A stretch of 64,000 bases of DNA from a virus. Lineage: Duplodnaviria > Caudoviricetes. The translations under genes and the position numbers were made by a program. Below the pieces are notes generated by a model. That model worked only from the letters and a program-made list of their open reading frames with translations. It had not been told where the DNA came from and made no database searches. Shown piece by piece: positions 4,699-62,852 of the stretch; positions within the stretch are counted from its first letter, which is position 1, and each line of letters starts with the position of its first letter. The stretch lies in the IMG/VR virus record IMGVR_UViG_3300043427_000994. The stretch is one strand, 5' to 3'.

Positions 4699-5349
4699 TT
4701 AAATTTCACTGTGGGTCACTAATTCTTCAACTTTTACTACTTTATTGCCTAAATAAAGGCGGCAAATGCTGAGAGTTTTAGCATCTGCTACATAAATGTA
4801 CCCACCGTATCTATAAGTACTTGCGTTTATTTTTATCTTAGACATCTTTTCAGCCCACTCTCTAAATACTGATTCGTCATTGAGCGGCTTTAAAGTAACC
4901 TTGTATTTGTGGGTATAGTCTTTTCTAATTATTATCTTAGGTCTACTAAGCAGTAATTCTTTAGTGGTTACGTTTTCTGGTTTAGAAATTTCTCGCAGTG
5001 TAATATTGTTAATGGAAGAAATTTTATCTACAATTTCTTCATTGTTAACATATACTCCTAGTATTGAACCTTCTACTCTCAGCGTATAATCATCTACTGT
5101 AGTTAGTAATTCAATTATTTTACCAGCAACTATAACGTCACCAACAACAGCATATTTTTTGCTCCAAGTAAAGCCAACCCTAATCTTTCCTTCCATATCT
5201 GAGTCAAACTTATTACTCAACTCAGTCAAGGATCGTTGGGTATCGACTAGTTTTTTTCCTCTAAAAAAGGTTGCTACAGGCGTCAGTATTGACACCTTGT
5301 ACGCATACCTATCAAAGAATAATTTATTAGTTTTCTTCAAGAATGGCAT
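4699..5349 (-). CDS. hypothetical protein
   Basis: 216-aa ORF overlapping the clpA end; no motif recognised. Confidence 0.7.
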   Translation of the reverse strand: MPFLKKTNKLFFDRYAYKVSILTPVATFFRGKKLVDTQRSLTELSNKFDSDMEGKIRVGFTWSKKYAVVGDVIVAGKIIELLTTVDDYTLRVEGSILGVYVNNEEIVDKISSINNITLREISKPENVTTKELLLSRPKIIIRKDYTHKYKVTLKPLNDESVFREWAEKMSKIKINASTYRYGGYIYVADAKTLSICRLYLGNKVVKVEELVTHSEI

Positions 5350-7564
5350 TTTCTTGTGCTTTTACAATTATTTCGTTATCAGCAACATCGATTGACACCT
5401 TGCCGCCATCCTTAAGTCCGCCAAACAACATTAGTTTAGACAGTGGACGTTTAATGTCTTTATCAATAACACGTTGTAAAGGACGAGCACCCATCTTGGG
5501 ATCAAAACCTTTTTCAACAAGGTAGTCAATGGCTTCATTACTAAGTGTAATCTTAATGCCTTTGTCTTTGACCTGTGTTTTTAACTCAACTAAGAACTTA
5601 CCAACAATTTTAATCATTGTTTCTTTGCTGAGTTTACCAAAGGTAATTATGCCGTCTAAACGATTGCGGAACTCTGGAGCAAAGAATTTCTTAAGTTCTT
5701 TATCTTCGTACCCGCTGTCTTGTGGACCAAAACCAATTGCGTTTCTATCTGCCTCGGCAGCACCCAAGTTTGTAGTCATAATCAACACAACATTACGAGC
5801 ATCTGCTTCTTTACCGTTGCTACCAGTAACCTTACCGTTGTCCATTAATTGTAGAAGGATAGTAGAAACATCGGGATGTGACTTTTCGACTTCGTCTAGT
5901 AATAATACACAATGTGGATGTTCTTGTAGTTTAGTAATCAGTAGGCCAGCATTTTCTTCAAAGCCAACATAACCTGGAGGCGATCCAATTAACTTACTAA
6001 CACTGTGTTTCTCTTGATATTCACTCATATCAAAGCGGATCATAGGAATGCCTAATTGTTTAGCCAACTGTTTGGCAGTTTCTGTTTTACCTGTACCAGT
6101 TGGGCCCATGAATACAAAACTACCTACGGGTTTGTTTTCACTCTTTAATCCTGCTTGTGCTACAAGAATCTTATCGACAATTTCTGTAATTGCTTCATCT
6201 TGTCCGTAAACCTCTCCTTTGAGATTCTTTTCAAGATTAACAAGATTTGAACTTTCTTTTTCTTTGATAGTGTCCTCTGGAAGATTTACCATCTTACTAA
6301 GTTCAAATTGAATACCAGGTACATCAACAATTTTATCTTCTTTAGAATTAATATTAAATCGCGAGCAAGCAACATCAATAAGGTCAATTGCTTTATCGGG
6401 TAATTTTTTATCTGTCATATAACGCACAGACAATTTAACTGCGGCCTCAATGGCTTCGTCGGTGATAGTAGCACCGTGATGTTTTTCGTAATATTTTTTA
6501 ACACCTTTGAGAATATCTACAGCCATTTCTGGAGTAGGCTCATCAACAGTAACACGTTGGAATCGGCGCATTAGGGCACGATCCTTTTCGAAGTACTTGC
6601 GATATTCTTCCCATGTTGTACTGGCAACTACTTTAATATTGCCCTTGCTTAGAGCAGGCTTCATCATGTTAGCAAGGTCGTTGCTATTTTGACTGCCACC
6701 AGCACCCGCACCGTTGATCATGTGTGCTTCGTCAATAAACAATACAGTCTTGCCTCTGCTTTGTAAGGCTTTAAGAACAAGTTTAAATCTTTCTTCAAAG
6801 TCTCCGCGATACTTACTACCAGCCAACATACTGCTGATATCAAGATTAAAAACAGTATATTCTTTTAAGAAATTTGGAACATGGTCGTGAATAATGTTAT
6901 AGGCCAAACCTTCTGCGATGGCAGTTTTACCAACTCCGGGATCGCCTACAAGCAGAATGTTGTTTTTATTTCTACGTCCTAGTCCTAGCGCAATTTGCTC
7001 TAATTCTTCAACTCGTCCAATTACTGGATCAATCTTATGCTTCTTGACCTGTTCATTAAGGTTGGTAGTAAATGATTTTAAAGCCTTTTCACTTTGAGCA
7101 TCAGTGACCTGTTCTTCTTCCTCGTCGATCTCGCTGTTGACAAAGTCAGCAAACTTTTCACGATCAACACCACCTTTGGTAATATAGTAAACAGCAAAAC
7201 TGCGCTTTTCACTCAAGGCACTTAGGAATACGTCTACAAGTTCGATACTTTGACGGCCACTGAACAATACCTGTGTAAACGCACGATTAAGTACACGCTC
7301 AACTGTTTGTGTTTTTTTAGGTTTAAATCCTTTTGGAATAGGATCAACTTTAATTTCGTCTAGTTTATTTTTGAGATAGTGTTCTAAATTTGTTTTGATA
7401 TAGTCACAGTCTGCTCCATAGTTAGATAGCAGATCAAAAAACTTTTCTTCGCAAAGCATAGCGAATACGAGATGTTCTAAAGTTACATACTCGTGACCCA
7501 GTTTCTTACAATCTGAAACTGCTTTTTCAAAAACTATTTGTAATTGATCACTTGGTTCTACCAT
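5327..7564 (-). CDS. clpA: ATP-dependent Clp protease ATP-binding subunit ClpA
   Basis: N-terminal HEYVTLEHL; two AAA+ modules (GDPGVGKT/LFIDEAH and GPTGTGKT/LLLDEVEK); GARPL; 745 aa with no ClpB M-domain. Confidence 0.95.
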   Translation of the reverse strand: MVEPSDQLQIVFEKAVSDCKKLGHEYVTLEHLVFAMLCEEKFFDLLSNYGADCDYIKTNLEHYLKNKLDEIKVDPIPKGFKPKKTQTVERVLNRAFTQVLFSGRQSIELVDVFLSALSEKRSFAVYYITKGGVDREKFADFVNSEIDEEEEQVTDAQSEKALKSFTTNLNEQVKKHKIDPVIGRVEELEQIALGLGRRNKNNILLVGDPGVGKTAIAEGLAYNIIHDHVPNFLKEYTVFNLDISSMLAGSKYRGDFEERFKLVLKALQSRGKTVLFIDEAHMINGAGAGGSQNSNDLANMMKPALSKGNIKVVASTTWEEYRKYFEKDRALMRRFQRVTVDEPTPEMAVDILKGVKKYYEKHHGATITDEAIEAAVKLSVRYMTDKKLPDKAIDLIDVACSRFNINSKEDKIVDVPGIQFELSKMVNLPEDTIKEKESSNLVNLEKNLKGEVYGQDEAITEIVDKILVAQAGLKSENKPVGSFVFMGPTGTGKTETAKQLAKQLGIPMIRFDMSEYQEKHSVSKLIGSPPGYVGFEENAGLLITKLQEHPHCVLLLDEVEKSHPDVSTILLQLMDNGKVTGSNGKEADARNVVLIMTTNLGAAEADRNAIGFGPQDSGYEDKELKKFFAPEFRNRLDGIITFGKLSKETMIKIVGKFLVELKTQVKDKGIKITLSNEAIDYLVEKGFDPKMGARPLQRVIDKDIKRPLSKLMLFGGLKDGGKVSIDVADNEIIVKAQENAILEEN

Positions 7565-23288: not shown

Positions 23289-26200
23289 TTAGAATCTTCC
23301 TACAACAACTTCAATAACGCCTTCATTGAAATCATCTTTATCTTGTACTGCTTTTCCAACGATTGTACCTGACTCAGGTGAGTTATTAACTGTAGCATAT
23401 CCTTGTTTAGCACTGGTCACTAGTATATCACCTTTGCTGACTTTTCCTACAACCTTACAAGGTACGCGACCTGTTAAGCCTAGCGCAACTACATTTTCAC
23501 CTGTTAAGTTAGCGTTCATCAAATGCGCTGGATTAGTAGATACTACACCTGCTACTCTAGTATCACCTTTAGTGCTAGTTACAGTAACTTCGTTAGCGCC
23601 ACCAAATACTAACACAGTTCCTGGTTCGTACTGCGCATCTGCTTGATAGTTTTCTGCTAAGTCAGCATAACGAGCACTGGTAGCAGTACCGTTATAGATA
23701 CCACTGTTGTCAATCCATGATACATCTGAACCGCCTCTGCGGAAACGTACAACTTCGGTAGAATCATTACCAACGTTAACGTACCAACGATTGCTGTGAT
23801 ATTCAAGTTTACCAGTGCCAGCGGCCGCATCGCCGGTCCAAGTAGTAGTGTTCTGTCTAATACTAGAACTAGCGTTCATAGTTAACTGACTAGTAAAAGT
23901 CAAAGAACCTATTGATGATCCACTTAAGAATGTTGCTACCTGTTGACCCGATGCTGTACGATAGAAGTTATCACCCTTCTTAGTCATTACACCAGTAACT
24001 GCGGCAGCAGTAGATGTATCATCAGAAGAATTAAAATATGTAGCATTGCTGTATCTAGCGTTGGTATCACCGTTGCTGTCACGCAATACAATTCTATCAC
24101 CAGTTGCGGATGTTGTGGCAGCAATAGTTGCCGAGTTGGCCTGACTAGTAATTGTAGCCGCATTTCCTGAAATACTACCTTGAATAGTATTTGTAACAGT
24201 TAAGTCTAAAGTACTAATTCGACCACTTACGCCAACACCGCCAGTAACTACTAGCGTACCACTTGTAGTATTTGTTGAAGCGGCATTCTGTGTAAACGTT
24301 ACAGCGTTATTAGCAGTTAATGTTGTAAATGCTCCACTACCTCTAGTAGTACCACCGATGTTTATGTTGTTAATAGTACCAGTTGACGCAGGTGCTATAG
24401 TTACAGAACCTGTGCCAGTTGGACTTAATGTAACATTAGCATTAGCAGGACTAAATGTAGCGGCCGCTGCCGATGTAATAGCATTGACACTTAGAGTACC
24501 TGTGGTAGTTATTGTTGAAGTTGAATCAGTATTACCTGATGCTTGTAAGAATTTAACACCACCAGGAGTAAACATATCTAAGGTAGTACCAGTTGTGTCT
24601 AAAGTTTTATAACCGTCAACCTCTAACTGTGCCACGTCAACAACACCTGATCCGTCTGATTTGATTAAACTGCTGGCTTGACCTGTTGTAGAAATGTTTA
24701 TAGTGCTGTATGTATTAGGAGTTATCGCAGTCATTATTAATGCGCGACCTTCACCGCCTACAGAGCCTGGCGCAAAACTAGCATTTTTAATACCATCACC
24801 GTCAGTGACTACCTGTCCAGGAGTAATTTCGTATGGAGTTCTTGATGATCCGCTTCTATTACCTAAAACTGATCCAGTGCCTATCTGTTGAATGTTATCT
24901 AACCTAACACCGTCAGCAATGGCTGTTATACTAGTAGTACTCACAGTTTGGCTGGTACTTACAGTATAAGTTCCTGCTCCGCCTGATCCAGTACCAAACG
25001 CAATAATTCTAGTACCGCCAATGACACTGGTACCTGATATTATCTGTCCAATAGCAATAGTACCAATGCTTGGAGCACTGGCAGTTAATGTAGTACCGCT
25101 GATACTACCTGAAAATACTGTGCTAGATGTTGTTTGTAATCTTACAAAACCATCTATGGCTGTAAACTGTGTCCAATCAAATGCTGATAAACCTTTATTT
25201 GCCTGTGTTATGCCACTGGCACTTGAGCGTACTGTGGCATCGCTCATAGCCAATTTACTTTGTTCTATACCAGCACTGGCATTTACATCAATGTTAAGTA
25301 TGGCTCCAGGTTTAATATTCAACGCTAAGTTCTTACCACTTAGGCTTGTTTGTATGTCGCCTGTGGTAATTGTTTCAGCGTTGACCCATTTAGTTCCATT
25401 ATAGACTAATAAGTTATTAAGAGTTCTTGCTGGACTAGTTGAAGTGTCTACACGTAGATTAGATAACTCTTGAACATCAACATAAGATCTAGTAGCCGCA
25501 TCGCTGTCTGTTGTAGGATCTTGTAAGTTAGCAATTCTGAAACCGCCCATGTTTAATGGATCTGGACCAGTAAACGCTAGAATACCTGATCGATCCATGT
25601 ACCCTGGACCAATTAATTGACTAGAGTCAAGTACCACATTGGTTCTATCCATGCCAAGACGTCTGTCAATATAACCCTGAACAGCCGCCTCAGTTGGTAG
25701 CGCATCGTTGGCACCGTCAGTAAATCTGTCATCGTTTGAGAATTCACTGACTGTAACACCGCGCTTAAATCCTAAGCCGTCTAAGTTTGATAACGCAATA
25801 CTTGCCGCAAATGTTACACGACCAGTACCTTGGTCAACTGTAAAGAATCGACCTACACGGAAAATACCGTCTTGGTCTGTGGTTACATAGAAACAGCGTC
25901 CTCTTGTACGTTCTTGAACTTCACGTGCTTGGTTAGGCTCTTTAGGAGCACCATAGATCTTAGCAGGATAGTTTGTACTGTTGTATCCACCAGTACCGAT
26001 ATCTAAGAAGTCATGACCAGTAACACGACATGTTGAAATTCTAACAATAATTTCTACAGGTTCTGTAGATGCTAAACCAGCACGTAATGTTGGAGGCTCA
26101 GCAATGTCTAAGTTAGTTAAAGGATCAACTGGAGTGTTAATACCACTTGGCGTAGTTCCTGATAGACTTTTTTCAGTTACATCTGCTAATCTAATAATAG

Positions 26201-29200
26201 CATAACCGGCTAACAATCCTAAGTCTTGATAACTTAAGATTCTATGTACCTTTCCGTCCCAGGCCATGATCATTTCGCCTGAGTTTAGTCTGTCCTCTAC
26301 TGATACCTCATTAACTCGAGCAACTGCCAGTGAAGTATCACCGATGCTGTATCCTAATGTTTTTGCCGGGTCAGTTGGATCAACATTACTAGTATACTCT
26401 CCTTCGACTAATAATTTAATATAATCGTAGGTTGTATCAAATCCTAGAACAGATTCGTCAAGCGCCAAATCTTCATTTAATGGACCTTTATTACCGTAGG
26501 CCAATACTCGATAAACAATAGCATCAGTAGCGTTTGGATCTCCCACAAATGTTAATGCTGTACTTGGGCGAACTGGATTAGTATCATCAATTTCGTAGTA
26601 TTTGAAGTTTTGATTACCACGTATAACAATTGGTTGATCATCGATTAAGTCTACTGCTAAACCGTTGGCAGCAGTGTCGTTGTTTCCGCCTGTGTTAATA
26701 TTAAGTCTTAGAATGTTTCCTCTACCCCAAATAGTTGGTGTACCACCGGTTACCCAGTTACCAGGATTTGTTGGGTATTCTAATGTCACGGAAGTAGTAG
26801 TTGATGCTGTGGCTCTATAAGTTCCGTTAAAAGCTCCCACAGTTGAACCAATCACTGTATAGACATCTAATCTTGGAGTATATGGTACTGCGGTAAATGA
26901 ATATGTTACATAATATTTTCCGCCTGTTGGTCCTGTTTTTACAGGAGTACCTGTGATACTACTAGGTAAAGTGCTGGATACATCAGTAACAGATGCTACT
27001 TCATAACGAGCAATACCGTTTCCAATAACAGTATCAACAGCAATACTAAATCCACCTCCGGTGCCACCAATGTTAGAAGCACTAACACTGATAGAATCTG
27101 TATCTTTGTATCTAAATCCTCCGCTAACTAGGGCAACTGTAGTAACAGCGCCGCCGGAAACAACAATGTTAACTAATGCGCCAGTGCCTGTTCCGCCTGT
27201 AACAGGAACGTTAATATAGGTACCATTGGTATATCCACTGCCGCCAATTAATGTTGATTGATCTAATTCAGTAATAACTCCCGAACCGTGATTAATTTCA
27301 ACTTCGGACACGTTGTAAGGAGCATAATCATGTTGATAAAAATAAACTGCTAGATCGTCTTTGTTGTTGTCTGTAGAATATAAATCTTTTTTGTAAACAC
27401 GAGCCACTTGGATCATATTATCAGATAAGAAAGCCTTGTCTGGAACTTCCAACGGATCTGAACCTTCCGAAATAATACCAAACTCGCCGTGTGCGTTAGA
27501 ACCGTTCAATGAACGAATCTGTCCACCGTTGTTGGCATAGTAAGCAGTCCAGCAGTAGTAACTGAAAACAGAAACAGTTTCAATTAAACCGATGTTTGTA
27601 GCAATCAATCCATAACCAAGGTCATTGATCTGCGTAAAGTCATTTGAACACATACTGGTGTTACCGGCACTTAATAACATAATTGAACTGATATATTCAA
27701 TCTTAGTAGTTCCGCCACCGAATGATCCTGGATCGCTTGGGTAACGGAATGTCATAGTATTAACAGTTGATGCCACGCACTCTACTGAATCACTGTTATA
27801 GTCAGTGTTTAGATTACCATAAATCCTATATCGAGTCTTAGTTAGAGGATTCGGAGTATGCGGAGTAATACTTAATACGACATCCCATGAACCGTCACCA
27901 ACTCCTGAGTCTGCTTTACTGACAAAACCTGTGACACTAAATTCTAAAGGATTAGTAATAGGTGTTGTGTCAGATAATGTTAGTCTATAGACTGGATAAA
28001 CAATAGGTTTGGCTCCAGCCAATACGCTGTCGTAATCAACATTAGGATCTTGTATAACTTCTACAATAAGATCCATTAAGTTACCTAATTGAACAATTTG
28101 ACTAGTTCCATCTAAATCAGCATCAAATGTTTGTGTAATTGGATTAGTTACACTGTTTGCTTCTTGGAAATTAATTAATGGTGCTTCTTGTCTAAGAACC
28201 TGCTGAGCAACATATTTGGCATAGTTAATAGCATCAACGGTTTCCTGTAACTGTTCGTTAATAACAACTCTTGAACTTACCGAGCCAACAAAATATCTCT
28301 GAGCCGCACGTATGGTCAAGTATGTTCCACCGTAGAGCAAATCAGATGATACGTTTGATACAATAAATCCAACGTCACGACGACAAATTTCTTCGTTATA
28401 GACAAAATCGTTTCCGTAGTTGTCGTTAATAAATGTTGTAACCTGTGTACCTAACGAAGTTTTATCTGTTTCTAAAGTGTTTCTTAATGTTACCAAAGTA
28501 GAGCTTACCCAAGTAGTACTTGGCTCAATGGTACTAGGAATAGATCCAAGACCATCATCAATGATATCTATAATTTCTTGTATTCTTGTTCCAGCAAATG
28601 CTGACGCACTAACAGAGCCCGCGGCACCTCTAATTTGTGGTACAATAACTTGTAATGGACTTATAGTTGAATCAATGGCAATCTGTTCAACTAGTGATTT
28701 TAAATATCCATAGGTTGCTAATGTAGCGGCCTTTTCGCTAAGAGCAACTTGTAATGTTGCGCCTACATAATAAGCAACACCGGCAATTAATGTCTGTAAA
28801 TTACCTTCATATGTTAAATCATATTGCAAGGCATCCAAAATATAATCAATATCTCGACGACATAGTTCTGGATCATATGAAAGACCAGGATAGTTATTTG
28901 TGATATACTGTATTAATTCTGCTTTGATAAATGATCTATTTTGTTCAATTAAATTACGAGCATTTTGATATCCTAAAGAATAACCAGTTGGACTAGGAAT
29001 AACATAAGTTGGAACTTCGTCTTCACCATAGGTAATAATATCTATGATAGTATTCATGTTATTAGTCACAGACGATAATGCTGTAGTATTGCTACTTACT
29101 AATGCTGTAACTAGTGTCTTGAGATAATTAAAGGCATCAATAGTAGCGGCCTTTTGACGTCCAACTGCGACGCTGGCATTACCTCGATAATATGATCTTC

Positions 29201-32200
29201 CAGCAACTATAGAAGCAAAGTTACTGCCAAACATTAGATCGTAGCCTAGAGCTTCAACGGTATAACGAATATCTCGTTGACACTTGGCTTCGTCATATTC
29301 AAAACTTACATATTTGTTATTAAGATAAGCAATAGTTTCAGCCTGTATAAATTCTCTGTTGGCTGTTAATAATGCTCTAGCATCTCTGGCTACAGTTGGA
29401 GGATTACCCAACACATCAAACATTTCATCAAACAACTCGTCAATTCTTGGCTGTGCCGCAAGACCGTCGGTATATTGTGTATCAATAAATTGTAATACAG
29501 CCTGTTGATATCTCACTGATGGAGACTCATTTTTGACCACCGATTTAATTACAGTTTTGATATAATCAATGGCCGCTAGTGTATTTTCAAGTTGAGAATC
29601 AATGACAATCTTAGAACTAGCACTGGCATTAAAATAAGATATTGCCGCCTGTACAGTTTTTAAATTTCCGCCATAATAGATATCATGGGCGATCGCTTCT
29701 GCGATATACCCTGTGTCTCTAGCGCAGGTATTTTGATTGTAACTGTATCGTTGATCTAAATATAGAATAGTGTTTGCTTTAAGACTTTCTTTTCTTGACA
29801 ATAATAAATTTCTACTGTCTAATATACTGCTGTCAACACCGCTGAATCCTGGATATTGGAATGCCGGTGCGGCAGTTCTACCACCTAAAATGATTGTATT
29901 AATAGAACTCATTAAGGTAGCAATTCTTGAAGCCTCGGTAGGACTTCCCGGATTGTCCAAATCAAATACCTGTGTTACTACGCCAGCGCCTTCTCCTTGC
30001 TTAGGAAATTCGATTTCAGTATTAGTAACCACTGCCTGGGCAACCTGACTAGCATAACCTAACGCGGCAGTAGTTTGTAAAGTTTGTCCAGGAATTAAAA
30101 GGTTTCCATTGCCGTCATAGTATTGTAATCCTGCTTCAACGGTAGCACTGTTACCACCATAAAGGATATCATAGATTACAGAATAGACAATATATTCTGT
30201 GTCTCGGCGACATTTATCTTCGTCATAGATAAAATCTGGATATAGATCTGAGATAAACGCAATGGTTTCTTCTTTGATAAATTCTAAGTTATCTAACAAT
30301 AGGTCTTTTGAATTTACTTTAGTAGTTGCTGTACCAGCCGGAATACCCCAAGTGATCTCATCGCTTGATTCTATGCCATTATCGATAATATCTAAAATTT
30401 CATCAAAACTATTTTCTGCTCTAGTTCTGGCAACGCTGTTGGCTACTAAAATTTCACTGATTAAACTCTTAGTATAGAGTAAAGCATCGATGGTCTGTGT
30501 TTTCTGATCTGGCAGTGTATCATATTGTGTGCCGCGATAATATGCTTGCCCGGCACGTATAGCATTAAAATTTGTACCTAATGTTAAGTCGTAACTTAAA
30601 GCATCAACTATTAATCCAACGTCTCTAGCGCAGGTAGTTCTATTAAATTCAAATTGAGGACTTAGCTCGGTGTTAATATAACCAATAACCTCTGCTTTGA
30701 TAAATTCAATGTTTCTACGAATTAACTGTCTTGAGCCCCCGTAGCCATTGCCATCATCGGTATATGCGTCAATTTTAAAAGTTCTACCGTCGACTACAAA
30801 CGAACAAGGCACTGTTGGAGCACGTTCGGAACCAGTTACTAATAAAACAGTGTCTGTAACTTTCTGATTTACTCTCATTGGAATGTTACCAGCAAAGCCG
30901 TCAACAAACTGTCCGCCAGCAAATCTTTGTTTGTTTAGTGATCCAGAAAATGAACCAGACTGCTGAATGTAAGCAGACTTGGTTAAAATTTGACCTTCGG
31001 GATCAAGAACCATCATAAATCCGCCGTGACCTTGACAGGTTATTTGACGAATAATAATAGCATCATTACATAAGAATACGTCGATGTCTCTGTTGTTTTT
31101 TGGTTCGCTTAGTGGATCGCTAGGATCTGTTAGATAATGATATCCGTACTCTGTGCTGGCTAACGTTAAACCATCAAATGTTTTATCTCTACGGAACCAT
31201 ACGTCAACCCACGGACTGCGACTTGGACGATCTGCTGGTCGAATAATACATCTACGTAATTCGTCACCAACAATGGCAACGTTGGCTGGTATTCGGATTG
31301 GATAATCTTCTTCGTAGATACCTGATTCTACAATAATACTGATCTGTATTTTTTTAACTGCTTGATCAAATTCTAAGTTTTCGCCTTCAACAAACTCACC
31401 TTCGACGTCATATAAATCAAAATAGTCTTCACCAATAACTGAGGTACCATCTGCTCCGTAGTACTGATAAACAAATCCTCGAGCACCACTGATACGTCCA
31501 ACTACAATTTTTCCTGAGACAATATCTGGTTTTGGTAGTTGGCCTTGGTCAACTCGATTTCCACCAAAGTTAGTAAAAAATACTCTAGTAGTGCCACTGA
31601 CACCGGACTCAATTCTAGTTACTTCTGAAAATGCCGCACCATCGTTATAAGCAATTAACTGTCTATAAGGACCAGTTTCCCATGGCGCCGCATTGACTAA
31701 TTCTTCTGCTTTTTGACAGGCCTTGTTGATACTGCGATACGAGTAAGAACGATCGCGTCCTTCTTTTCCTAACGGTGTTCTTGATTGATTGTCATCTCCC
31801 TGTGTAGTAACAAACAAATTAACTTGACTCGAATACGAAGCATTATCAACATAGTATTTTGTTGCGGCTTGTAAATCGTCTGGACCGTTTGGTGTTCCTT
31901 GACCTGCTAGTTGTCCAGGATGGTCAGCAAGATTTAATATACCCTGCATATTTCCGCCAGTTTTTAATACAACTTCACTGGCACGTGGTACTTGAGTTCC
32001 TGTGGCGTTTGCTGGAACATTTAAATGTCCGGACATTGTGTCGCCGTTGACGTTTACATATTTGTTATCAGCATAGCCTTTGTTAATAGCAAAACTGTCA
32101 ATGCTATAATTAGAACTATGTCTTGAATTAAAATCGTTTACGGCTGTAATAAATTCTGTGTTGTTAGTTGGAGAACGTAGTCCACCAATTAATTGATTCT

Positions 32201-32552
32201 GGGCACTTAAAGAATATTGTAATTTTGGTAACGGATCGTCTACTAAACGAGATGCTAATGTATCAATTCTAATAGAATTAGCGTCTTGTGTAATAGCAAT
32301 AGTGCCGCTGGGGCTAGTAAATGCTTTAAACACTAAACTAGTTCCCAGTGAGTTAACCACCGGAACTTTGTTACCTTGTCCTGTTAACGTATCTGGAGTA
32401 TCACTAAGGTCGGTAAATTTTAAGAAACCACCTTGACCAAAAACAGCGTAGAGTTCTTGGAAGTTTTCGTTCGTTTTTCTAAACGCTTCGCGAATACTAT
32501 CGCCTGTACCATCATTACCGGTTACGCCGATGTCAACTATTTTACGTGCCAT
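23289..32552 (-). CDS. giant (~3090 aa) tail/baseplate-associated structural protein
   Basis: N-terminal [11 protein letters not shown] motif; pectin-lyase-like region; six internal repeats; C-terminal YADLAENY...EPGTVL...STNPA...GRVPCKV autoproteolytic-chaperone-like domain; start set at ATG 32552 (SD GGAG). Confidence 0.85.
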
Positions 32553-32622
32553 TGAATGCTCCAAAAAAGACTTTCTAGCATTATTTAGCCGAAAAAAAAC
32601 ATAAGCCTAATGTAAATACAAG

Positions 32623-32935: not shown

Positions 32936-33172
32936 ATGTTGTCATTATTAAGAAAACTTTTTGGCGGTAAAGCAGAAGAAACTAAGGCAGCAGAAGCGCC
33001 TTATAAGATTGAAACACCTGCTCCAACACCTGTAGCAGAACAAGCGACTCAGGCAGTAGTTGAGTCGATTGCCCCAAAGGCAGAACCAGTCAAGAAAAAG
33101 CCAGCACCTAAAAAGGCACCGGCTAAAGCAACTGCTAAAAAAGCCCCTGCTAAAAAAGCCCCTAAGAAGTAA
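32936..33172 (+). CDS. Lys/Ala/Pro-rich histone-H1-like small protein
   Basis: KKAPAK repeats; start corrected to ATG 32936 (SD GGAGG); TATAAATA at 32906-32913. Confidence 0.7.
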   Translation: MLSLLRKLFGGKAEETKAAEAPYKIETPAPTPVAEQATQAVVESIAPKAEPVKKKPAPKKAPAKATAKKAPAKKAPKK

Positions 33173-34196
33173 TAGTCTTAGCCTGTTCATATAGTGCAAA
33201 ACTAGCAAGGTTCTTTCCTTTGCTTTCGCACATAATATCGGACTGATCCCAAAAACTCAGTGCCCATTCATTCACTGCTGTGTTCCAGTAGAAATTTGAG
33301 TGTGCTCTGAGTTTTGCTTTTTTGTGCCCGCTCTCTATCAGCGTATTAAGGGAGGGAACGGTGTCTGTGGGATGGTTAGTAAGATGCTCTTCCCGTGAAA
33401 CACTATAATGTATAACAGGCCTAACACCACGCCAACTATCAATAATCCTTTTAACACGGTCGTCATTTGCTTCAATATATTCTCCTGAGTGTATCCAATG
33501 ATGGTGTATGTCTAGCACCAAAGCGAGATCCTTGGCAAGTTCGAGGCTTGCGTCAATTCCCCAACTGATTTCGTCGTTTTCGATGGTGATGCAGTTTCTT
33601 GCTTCGGGGGTAAGTCTCTTGAGGGCACTTTTAATACCGGCTGGACCGGCTCTACCGGCAATGTGGACATTGATCTTAAAGTCCTGATATCTTTCACCGT
33701 ACCCCATCCATCTCGCCATATCCGCATGATATTCAAACTCCTCTATACTACGCTGAACAATATCAGGGCTGTCAGATGCCAGCACAGTAAATTGACCAGG
33801 ATGAAAACTGAGACGAACGTTGCGGGCACGAGCAAGATCTCCCACTTGTTTAAAATGTTTTTGGGCGTATGCCTGTACATCAGTCTTGCCCCAAAAATAG
33901 CGCCAAGTAGACTCAGTATAAACAGGAAGGATATCACTGCTAAGGCGGACCATACGTAAGTGCTCATCTTGTTCTCCCACTTTGGTTACAAGTTTATTTA
34001 CAGATTCAATATTTTGGACCATTAGGTCCCACAGTTTTTGTTCTGCTACATCTCGTGTTTGACGATTAAGCCACGCTACAGTAGTAGAACCAGTATTGTA
34101 TTGTTTACAATCATCTTTGGGTTTGATACCGTTCACTTGATCAGGTCGGTCAATCCATTTACAGGCAAAGCCAATTCGTTTAGTCATAGCAGTCAA
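33162..34196 (-). CDS. uvsE: UV damage repair endonuclease (UvsE/UVDE)
   Basis: RIGFAC, RLSSDILP, RLSFHPGQF, INVHIAG, TIENDE, VLDIHHH, RAHS, DIMCESKGKN. Confidence 0.92.
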   Translation of the reverse strand: MTAMTKRIGFACKWIDRPDQVNGIKPKDDCKQYNTGSTTVAWLNRQTRDVAEQKLWDLMVQNIESVNKLVTKVGEQDEHLRMVRLSSDILPVYTESTWRYFWGKTDVQAYAQKHFKQVGDLARARNVRLSFHPGQFTVLASDSPDIVQRSIEEFEYHADMARWMGYGERYQDFKINVHIAGRAGPAGIKSALKRLTPEARNCITIENDEISWGIDASLELAKDLALVLDIHHHWIHSGEYIEANDDRVKRIIDSWRGVRPVIHYSVSREEHLTNHPTDTVPSLNTLIESGHKKAKLRAHSNFYWNTAVNEWALSFWDQSDIMCESKGKNLASFALYEQAKTITS

Positions 34197-34249: not shown

Positions 34250-34774
34250 TTATCCTTCGTAGACTGCCGAATTTCCTAAATGTTCAAACACTTCTGCAGA
34301 TTTGAGCCTTACACCTGAACCTACAGGATAACGTGCTTCAAATGTCTGTCCATTAGGACAGTAGTAAGTATTTCCTGTTTTGAAAATGTGTAAAATAGTA
34401 GCCATTTCTTTGTATACTAATTCTGCAAATTTTTCACAGCCTACACCTTGTACTACTCTAAGATCACAGACACCGCCTTTGTCTTGTAATCCTAGTTCTG
34501 CCATTTTCTCAAACATAGCTCTATGGGGATCGTCTTCTGCTACAACTAGAGTATGATCAAACATGTACTCTGCCCATTCTTTGAATGCTTTGAGTCCGCC
34601 AAAGTCCATGACCCAATTACGATCATCTAGGGTTTCGGATTCAAAAATTAGTTTGATGCCAATGGAGTAACCATGTAGCAGTGAGCAATGGCTATGTGTT
34701 GAACGCCATTGTCTAAAACAGCATGACAGCCCTCTGTCGTTACCGTAGGTTTTTGTTGATAGATATTTTGCCAT
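34250..34774 (-). CDS. queD: 6-pyruvoyl-tetrahydropterin / CPH4 synthase (QueD family)
   Basis: SHCSLLHGYS, WVMDFGGLK, FDHT, GCEKFAE, EVFEH. Confidence 0.9.
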   Translation of the reverse strand: MAKYLSTKTYGNDRGLSCCFRQWRSTHSHCSLLHGYSIGIKLIFESETLDDRNWVMDFGGLKAFKEWAEYMFDHTLVVAEDDPHRAMFEKMAELGLQDKGGVCDLRVVQGVGCEKFAELVYKEMATILHIFKTGNTYYCPNGQTFEARYPVGSGVRLKSAEVFEHLGNSAVYEG

Positions 34775-34779
34775 CTCTA

Positions 34780-34855
34780 GTCTCCTTTGTTAAGTAGCAA
34801 GTTTGATGACATGCAGAGTATTTAGAGTGGGATGAACGCCATAAAGTCCACTATT
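34780..34855 (-). promoter_or_regulatory. structured queD leader (candidate cis-regulatory pseudoknot)
   Basis: AGTGG/CCACT stem with a 17-nt loop whose ATGGCG can pair with downstream TGTCAT; SD AAGGAG at 34782-34787. Confidence 0.45.
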
Positions 34856-34860
34856 GATAT

Positions 34861-34889
34861 AGTATAATTAAAAACATTGACAATGTCAA
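34861..34889 (-). promoter_or_regulatory. sigma70-type promoter for queD
   Basis: TTGACA (34884-34889) N17 TATACT (34861-34866); the -35 lies in the palindrome TTGACAnTGTCAA. Confidence 0.8.
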
Positions 34890-34911: not shown

Positions 34912-35247
34912 TTATTTTTCTGTTTTTGAGCGAACGTCTTTCTTGAGCTTACGGAACTCAATCAACACATCCATCAATTTTTTTTGACTTTCTTTTATAT
35001 ATTTTACTGTGAGAGCAATTTTATGTATGGCCCAATACCACCAAATAATACAGATAAGAGCAAATGCTACGGCAGTTATTTCTAAAATTAATTCCACAGC
35101 AGAATTCCATTTGAAGAAATAACAAATTGATACTATTGCTAGAACAAGTAAGGGTAGAATTCTTGCGGCCCATTCCCAAGCAGTTACTTCACGGACCGTT
35201 TTATTTTCAAATTGTTCTAATTTTTCAAAGTTTTCTTGTTCATTCAT
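34912..35247 (-). CDS. two-TM membrane protein
   Basis: Two hydrophobic segments followed by a coiled-coil tail. Confidence 0.7.
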   Translation of the reverse strand: MNEQENFEKLEQFENKTVREVTAWEWAARILPLLVLAIVSICYFFKWNSAVELILEITAVAFALICIIWWYWAIHKIALTVKYIKESQKKLMDVLIEFRKLKKDVRSKTEK

Positions 35248-61286: not shown

Positions 61287-61361
61287 TGGTCCCACCGCCC
61301 AGAATCAAACTGAGATCTAAACCTTAGGAGTGTCTTGTTCTATTCATTGAACTACGGTGAG
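61287..61361 (-). tRNA. tRNA-Arg(CCU), slightly degenerate
   Basis: Acceptor CTCACCG/CGGTGGG, D-stem GTTC/GAAC, loop CT-CCT-AA, T-stem CTCAG/CTGGG, encoded CCA. T-loop is TTTGATT and there is an A31-G39 mismatch. Confidence 0.8.
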
Positions 61362-62778: not shown

Positions 62779-62852
62779 TGGTTGCGGGACCCGGAATCGA
62801 ACCAGGAACTAGAGCTTATGAGACTCTCGAGATGCCGTTTCTCTATCCCGCG
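62779..62852 (-). tRNA. tRNA-Met(CAU), initiator-like (C1:A72, A11:U24)
   Basis: CGCGGGA/TCCCGCA-A-CCA, D-stem GAGA/TCTC, loop CT-CAT-AA, T-arm CCTGG-TTCGATT-CCGGG. Confidence 0.9.

Follow-up and report, generated by a model that had tools for sequence, protein, structure and literature searches.

An uncultured phage from freshwater metagenomes carries a gene for a QueD-like protein, and between this gene and a sigma-70-type promoter lies a leader of about 80 nt. What does this leader do? A reading made from the letters alone (the sequence-only reading) had seen in it a conserved, riboswitch-like H-type pseudoknot resembling preQ1-I. The window analyzed here, a stretch of 64,000 nt, belongs to an IMG/VR virus record of 66 kb with a CheckV completeness of 18%, and the relatives of this phage reach 238-382 kb in size.

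A coordinate check of the promoter, P1, loop, linker, P2, Shine-Dalgarno sequence (SD), and AUG confirmed that every element lies on the minus strand, as do all leader coordinates given below. The upstream gene (34912-35247) terminates with a UAA at 34914-34912. The promoter (34861-34889) agrees with the consensus at 11 of 12 positions, with a -35 element TTGACA (34889-34884), a 17-nt spacer, and a -10 element TATACT (34866-34861). Transcription is predicted to start at about 34854, 1-3 nt ahead of P1, and the leader extends to the AUG (34774-34772) of a 174-aa open reading frame (34250-34774). Among relatives, a promoter of the same type, with its -10 element ending 6-9 nt before P1, was found in 37 of 143 distinct upstream regions, compared with just 1 of 143 at a control position 65 nt further upstream. 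No terminator was found in the leader. In the window, the -35 box of this promoter overlaps with a perfect 13-nt palindrome, TTGACATTGTCAA (34877-34889), which may have arisen by chance or may be an operator site recognized by a dimeric DNA-binding protein.

The pseudoknot is built as follows. The 5' strand of P1, AGUGG (34848-34852), pairs with its 3' strand, CCACU (34826-34830), and between them is a 17-nt loop, ACUUUAUGGCGUUCAUC (34847-34831). This loop is composed of L1, ACUUU (34843-34847), in which a variable first base precedes an invariant C-U; the 5' strand of P2, AUGGCGU (34836-34842), which resembles the start-codon region AUGGCA; and L2, UCAUC (34831-34835), whose last C (34831) is immediately 5' of the P1 3' strand. 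A 13-nt linker, L3 (CUAAAUACUCUGC, 34813-34825), then runs through an A-rich stretch into YUCUGC and is followed by the 3' strand of P2, AUGUCAU (34806-34812), which serves both as the pseudoknot strand and as an anti-RBS strand. In the window, P2 (34842-34836 with 34812-34806) comprises seven pairs, two of which are G-U. The sequence-only reading had located P1, the 17-nt loop, and the complementarity of UGUCAU to the loop sequence AUGGCG correctly. It had also recognized an A-rich linker, which is indeed present, but the extent given, CUAAAUAC, was too short.

Folding of this one leader was rejected as evidence. The nested minimum free energy (MFE) is -12.5 kcal/mol versus -12.58 kcal/mol for shuffled sequences (z = 0.03), and the nested fold is not conserved. 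Such a calculation is uninformative in this case, because pseudoknots lie outside the nested-fold model. In addition, metatranscriptome contigs from two runs, representing relatives 85-95% alike, overlap positions 34767-34840, and one of them extends upstream of the predicted start. These contigs were also set aside as RNA evidence, since contigs cannot reveal transcription, strand, or 5' end.

The comparative evidence begins with a search of IMG/VR using the downstream protein, which yielded 590 loci, of which 80 were fetched. In 73 of these 80 protein-anchored loci, the motif lies directly upstream of queD, as 58 distinct sequences, and in two others (L006 and L071) it lies ahead of an intervening gene. 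Conservation upstream of homologs, a check that had been proposed together with the original claim, is thus borne out. A degenerate pattern derived from A1, an unbiased, protein-anchored alignment of 55 sequences, was then used for scans. These identified at least 120 further viral contigs, nearly all with 5/5 pairing in P1, and the total now stands at at least 149 unique aptamers, nearly all from uncultured viral contigs. The view that such an element is "unusual in a lytic phage" is not supported, as the motif is present in well above 100 uncultured phage contigs.

A scan of 185,579 bacterial and archaeal species genomes with the same pattern gave only 16 matches. Six of these are real and reside in metagenome bins (Bacteroidota, Rickettsiales MED657, and a Nitrospira bin), four of them on contigs of less than 10 kb; they are probably binned phage DNA. 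The remaining ten either have a poor P1 or were not re-found, and look like chance. According to a covariance model, R1, the window's own 66-kb record and each of five jumbo-phage records (238-382 kb) contain the motif exactly once, always ahead of a gene for a QueD/PTPS-fold protein. A BLAST search of the leader against 50,697 cultured-phage records returned chance matches only, and five queD loci of cultured phages (Synechococcus BUCT-ZZ01, Pseudanabaena Pan1, Chryseobacterium MA9V-3, Xanthomonas PhiXhv-15, and Sinorhizobium Phosso) gave no match to R1 when its filters were disabled. As far as these sequence searches reach, the motif is so far known only from uncultured phages, and a cultured carrier was not found.

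The covariation check that had also been proposed gave a clear result. In a 100-sequence alignment, P1 is 99% paired. Three of its pairs are invariant G-C pairs, the middle (third) pair is C-G in 49 sequences, A-U in 30, and U-A in 21, and the first pair is A-U in 87 and U-A in 7. Over the set of at least 149 unique aptamers, pair 3 is found as C-G (83), A-U (42), U-A (22), and G-C (2), and pair 1 as A-U (127) and U-A (13). In the same set, P2 varies as U-A 66, C-G 26, A-U 22, and G-C 13 at position 1; as C-G 45, A-U 40, G-U 26, and U-A 13 at position 2; and as G-C 61, A-U 42, and G-U 17 at position 4. Each of the five core pairs of P2 occurs as two to four Watson-Crick pair types, and covariation is seen at every P2 position. 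The covariation score of the 100 sequences is 0.310, while shuffled alignments give 0.132 +/- 0.008, with none of 500 reaching the observed value, and slid controls give at most 0.093.

It should be noted that in the covariance-model alignment (A2) the tails of the classes with a shorter P2 are one column out of register. The pair counts from 100 sequences therefore understate P2, the covariation score is conservative, and an anchored count was used for P2 instead. For this count, the loop was anchored by its 3' end and the tail by its 5' end, independently of the proposed pairing. In the proposed register, P2 is 86% paired overall, with individual core positions at 81-91%, whereas shifted registers give 28-49% and permuted tails 55 +/- 2%, with a maximum of 62% in 2000 permutations. 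Furthermore, when a base is absent from the 5' strand of P2, its partner in the tail is absent as well. Taken together, the conservation and covariation of both helices indicate that the H-type pseudoknot is real and that, at the level of the aligned sequences, the queD leader contains a widespread, uncatalogued cis-regulatory element.

Many unpaired bases are conserved as well. In A1, 13 unpaired positions are invariant, along with the G-C pairs of P1. Within L1, C9 and T10 (the C-U) do not change. L2 retains its U, its A, and its final C, and L3 retains an A at positions 3, 5, and 7. In YUCUGC, the UCU and the final C are invariant, and a G-to-U change at the fifth base is found in short leaders of the UACCA type. 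In a count not confined to the 55 sequences of A1, the first base of L1 is variable (A 53, U 48, and C 47). Judged from the alignment, 13 invariant unpaired bases are typical of a ligand pocket. The geometry of an H-type pseudoknot would bring the last bases of L3, all of L2, and the first bases of L1 together where P1 and P2 meet; here, these are the conserved YUCUGC, UCANC, and N-C-U, and the ligand pocket is likely to lie at this junction. Modeled in this way, the pocket is probably larger than that of preQ1-I.

The C preceding the P1 3' strand has one natural variant, a C-to-U change present in three contigs. The leader is identical in all three (L224 1970-2004, L225 7423-7457, and L226 6769-6803), although the contigs come from different samples. 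Its P1, P2, and anti-RBS helix are intact, and it precedes a PTPS of the 'LPCGHAQ' (HGH-like) subfamily. The variant could mark an altered ligand specificity.

Is this RNA a member of a family already described? The leader matches nothing relevant among the 4227 families of Rfam 15, either in the window at the gathering threshold or, at E <= 10, in the leader region and 10 related loci. These scans returned only two tRNAs and chance matches (MIR3932, sau-30, and psbNH). RF00522, the preQ1-I model, run alone at E <= 10 on the window's genome and on five related records, picked up chance sites elsewhere but never the leader; its gathering threshold of 39 bits is not reached by the leader. These searches agree with the sequence-only reading, which had noted a misfit to the preQ1-I consensus. 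No description of the motif was found in the literature, and a 2024 review lists three preQ1 classes with five motifs, none of them from phages and none of the ON type.

The motif shares several features with preQ1-I (RF00522; B. subtilis queC, T. tengcongensis, E. coli; types I-III; PMC10622847, PMC8752633, PMC11625349). Like preQ1-I, it is a small H-type pseudoknot with which a que-pathway mRNA begins, and it is associated with translational control. In either RNA, P1 measures 5 bp and includes conserved G-C pairs, P2 arises from pairing of the loop with the 3' tail, L2 is about 5 nt long, L3 is rich in A, and a conserved cytidine immediately precedes the P1 3' strand; in preQ1-I, this is the specificity cytidine. 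However, the aptamer is about 47 nt long, compared with about 34 nt in preQ1-I, and its P2, at 5-7 bp, is also longer. L1 begins with N-C-U, whereas preQ1-I has a conserved uridine directly after P1 in an L1 of 1-3 nt. L3 carries six extra bases, YUCUGC, without a counterpart in preQ1-I, where L3 runs straight into the P2 3' strand. Finally, preQ1-I has its SD in or next to the P2 3' strand (or uses a terminator) and acts as an OFF switch, whereas here the P2 3' strand is an anti-RBS sequence and the predicted switch is ON. Since the L1 uridine, the compactness, the SD within P2, and the OFF logic are all unshared, the motif was not assigned to preQ1-I.

Other known RNAs resemble the motif in single respects. 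The preQ1-II and preQ1-III riboswitches (RF01054, RF02680) are likewise pseudoknotted 7-deazaguanine sensors that control the translation of queuosine-related genes, but they have larger, HLout-type folds with extra helices, are OFF switches that bury the SD, and gave no Rfam match here. In the Vibrio vulnificus add adenine riboswitch, ligand binding likewise draws a strand away from pairing with the SD/AUG region and so frees the RBS; its aptamer, however, is a purine-family three-way junction without a pseudoknot and has no sequence relationship to the motif. SAM-II and SAM-V are also classical H-type pseudoknot aptamers, and SAM-V is often encountered in metagenomes from aquatic sources and in samples rich in phages. 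Their ligand, however, is SAM, bound within a P2b triplex, and they are OFF switches of methionine/SAM genes; again, there was no Rfam match. The leader of T4 gene 32 is, like this one, a 5' pseudoknot in a phage mRNA that governs translation of the downstream gene. The T4 pseudoknot, however, is bound cooperatively by the gene's own protein and lacks conserved pocket-like loops or a metabolic context.

How might such a pseudoknot control the gene? Across leaders, the SD lies outside P2, 19-45 nt downstream; in the window, the SD AAGGAGA (34781-34787) ends 6 nt before the AUG. There, UGUCAUC (34805-34811), which shares six bases with the P2 3' strand, is complementary to GAUGGCA (34769-34775), a sequence that spans the start codon, and the two arms are predicted to form a hairpin. 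Among 147 leaders, pairing of the P2 3' strand with the SD/AUG region is predicted for 98% and involves 6.2 pairs on average. In these leaders, the mean MFE of the platform is -8.5 kcal/mol, compared with -4.9 when the strand is shuffled and -4.1 when it is blocked. Blocking the P2 3' strand raises the mean accessibility of the RBS from 0.50 to 0.62, and that of the window from 0.34 to 0.61; the change that nested folding predicts is of moderate size. The complementarity between the P2 3' strand and the RBS persists in at least five unrelated designs of the platform: CAUC/GAUG, CAUUG/CAAUG, CCUAUG/CAUAGG (which covers the SD), UGUCUUC/GGAGACA, and ACCAUAUU/AAUAUGGU. It had also been considered that YUCUGC might be an anti-SD element. 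This was rejected, because it is the P2 3' strand that tracks the RBS sequence across the platform types.

What these sequence comparisons show, then, is that the element is conserved, that its two helices covary, and that its P2 3' strand is complementary to the RBS. Since P2 and the anti-RBS helix share the P2 3' strand in each of at least five designs, the platform is computationally mutually exclusive with the aptamer, as expected of a riboswitch; also as expected, covarying helices and invariant unpaired bases occur together in the 5' leader of metabolically coherent genes. The 5' strand of P2 mimics the start-codon region, so that both compete for one strand, and the calculated duplex energies in the window (-4.9 kcal/mol for P2 versus -9.4 kcal/mol for the anti-RBS helix) imply that P2 wins only if it is stabilized from outside.

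Given all of these findings, we consider it reasonably probable that the leader is a phage-specific riboswitch, with an architecture like that of preQ1-I, that turns translation on. In this model, the first ~47 nt of the transcript would fold into an H-type pseudoknot aptamer with a 5-bp P1 and a 5-7-bp P2. In the absence of ligand, the stronger anti-RBS hairpin would form and mask the AUG and part of the SD. When ligand is bound, P2 would be held in the pseudoknot, the RBS would be exposed, and the QueD-like enzyme would be translated. That the P2 3' strand is itself the anti-RBS sequence, a feature overlooked in the sequence-only reading, is what implies an ON switch. In preQ1-I, the ligand sits at the P1/P2 junction and stabilizes P2 (PMC10622847, PMC8752633), and by analogy, binding should free the RBS here. 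[quoted passage not shown] Several points count against this reading: a biosynthetic gene would be switched on, the reverse of what every characterized preQ1 riboswitch does; the folding energy of the window's leader is unexceptional (z = 0.03); the QueD is divergent, and Pfam matches to TGT/DpdA, HPPK, and a clear QueC are lacking in five related genomes; and the predicted change in accessibility is moderate.

The nature of the regulated gene bears on what such a ligand might be. The protein downstream of the leader in the window matches Pfam PTPS (E = 7.7e-12), scores 38.2 bits with NCBIfam QueD (the cut-off being 89.25), aligns weakly to the solved QueD structures 4ntm and 7v0f (E ~0.009), and has C-x3-HGY in place of the zinc motif C-x3-HGH. 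Its sequence thus identifies it as a divergent QueD. It shares 44-49% identity with QueD-like genes from cultured phages, where these genes are accompanied by QueE, QueC, or FolE. Among the genes downstream of the motif, 118 of 122 belong to the PTPS/QueD-fold family and represent several subfamilies that have diverged from one another. Of the four exceptions, three (encoding a cupin, a methyltransferase, and an unknown protein) are followed immediately by the PTPS gene as the second gene of the operon; the fourth is itself PTPS-like. In L199, a QueD-QueE operon, whose QueE has a classical N-terminus, lies under the motif. The same aptamer is found ahead of at least four divergent PTPS/QueD-fold subfamilies (L071 2478-3522; L105, L101, L110, L114, and L109). 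Some phages have two PTPS paralogues in tandem, and most members of the subfamilies carry C-x3-HGY rather than the zinc-binding C-x3-HGH.

Pathway genes were sought in the five related jumbo genomes, of which three have a completeness of 98% or more. FolE is present in all five, as is a QueE-like gene of 281-302 aa that is sub-threshold but has a QueE model as every top match. By Pfam, no TGT/DpdA and no HPPK were found in these five genomes, and QueC was represented by weak PP-loop matches only; since the phage relatives of DpdA and QueC are divergent, such genes may still be present. Together, the FolE and QueE-like genes make a route from GTP to at least CDG plausible in these phages, as judged from their gene content. 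The gene context fits the chemical family of preQ0/preQ1, a pterin, or GTP that had been suggested at the outset. The ligand probably has a guanine-like face and comes from the GTP-to-7-deazaguanine or the pterin route. The candidates are preQ0/preQ1, CDG, CPH4, dihydroneopterin triphosphate, and guanine/GTP, which share a 2-amino-4-oxo face that a cytidine could read.

Several other features of these genomes were noted. In the window, queD lies among structural genes rather than among genes of nucleotide metabolism; nearby, a 3091-aa open reading frame (23289-32564, minus strand) has repeated matches to phage tail-fiber families. Directly downstream of queD is a gene for a UV-damage endonuclease of the UvdE/UvsE type (33162-34196, minus strand), and the same gene lies no more than 1-2 kb away from queD in two jumbo relatives with complete genomes (L233 4167-5189 and L234 9314-10339), indicating conserved synteny. 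A DAHP/KDO8P-synthase-family gene comes right after the QueD-like gene in L234 (7350-8198) and L185, and the cluster of G004 is bordered by a cytidylyltransferase and an NAD-dependent epimerase; these neighbors hint at sugar-nucleotide chemistry tied to the pathway. The jumbo relatives G001-G005 (the records of L026, L142, L135, L176, and L056) have 3-19 radical-SAM genes each, a number unusual for phages, partly in long arrays (for example, in L222) that include twitch/SPASM-type enzymes and small PP-loop ATPases. The window also encodes a Lon-like ATP-dependent protease, uncommon in phages (5327-7564, minus strand; PHROG 4871, E = 5e-250), a DNA ligase, giant tail-fiber-like open reading frames, and, by Rfam, two tRNAs (61290-61361 and 62782-62852, minus strand; 46 and 52.5 bits).

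Explanations other than an ON riboswitch have also to be weighed. Any effector that stabilizes P2 would suit a conserved structure with mutually exclusive helices, and this effector might be a protein of the phage or its host, for example a translational regulator of the phage or even the QueD-like enzyme, which would shift the balance between P2 and the anti-RBS helix at a translational operator. The T4 gene 32 pseudoknot works in a comparable way, the restriction of the motif to phages would be in keeping with such an operator, and the tight link to one gene family would suit autoregulation. However, the aptamer precedes at least four divergent PTPS subfamilies, sometimes with a cupin or methyltransferase gene first, so an autoregulator would need to have kept one RNA-binding surface throughout. 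Moreover, no conserved RNA-binding gene adjoins the motif, and the invariant C and A-rich L3 reproduce the layout of the small-molecule pocket of preQ1-I (PMC10622847). A protein operator is therefore considered unlikely. The position of the aptamer, which begins within a few bases of the predicted 5' end, and the presence of two short helices of similar strength, as in RNA thermometers, could instead reflect an element that needs no ligand: one in which helix competition tunes the basal rate, setting a fixed or temperature-dependent level of translation, or one that stabilizes the 5' end of the mRNA. For simple helix competition, though, the 13 invariant unpaired bases in L1, L2, and L3 would be superfluous, and there would be no need for an exclusive tie to one enzyme family across very different phages. 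This explanation seems to us quite unlikely.

It is also conceivable that the leader is an ordinary, divergent member of preQ1-I that binds preQ1 and represses queD in the manner of the riboswitches of bacterial que operons. Such a member would be expected to form an H-type pseudoknot with a G-C-rich P1 of 5 bp, a C ahead of the P1 3' strand, and an L3 rich in A, and to lie upstream of a que-type gene, as the leader does. Yet neither in the window's genome nor in the five related records does RF00522 match the leader, even when E-values up to 10 are allowed, and the full Rfam scans are negative. In addition, the SD lies outside P2, with the P2 3' strand complementary to the RBS instead, L1 lacks the conserved U directly after P1, and L3 has the extra YUCUGC. 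Such a member appears very improbable, the least probable of the three alternatives. Two points of background should be kept in mind: to our knowledge, riboswitch classes carried mainly by phages are very rare, and we know of no preQ1-family riboswitch that does other than repress gene expression.

The ON riboswitch favored here can be specified further. It may represent a new phage-specific class, derived from or convergent with preQ1-I, whose enlarged pocket senses a compound of the 7-deazapurine/pterin pathway and thereby turns on the QueD-like enzyme; this fuller proposal could equally well prove right or wrong. If it is right, the preQ1-like pseudoknots would gain their first natural member of the ON type, and an intermediate such as CPH4, CDG, preQ0, or dihydroneopterin triphosphate might gain its first sensor. 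The motif would also offer synthetic biology a compact ON-switch scaffold of about 50 nt, and the switch would provide an experimental handle on the products of the divergent phage QueD-like enzymes. For the phages themselves, it would mean that hundreds of freshwater phages, jumbo phages included, sense a host or phage metabolite to time the expression of an enzyme of the 7-deazaguanine/pterin pathway.
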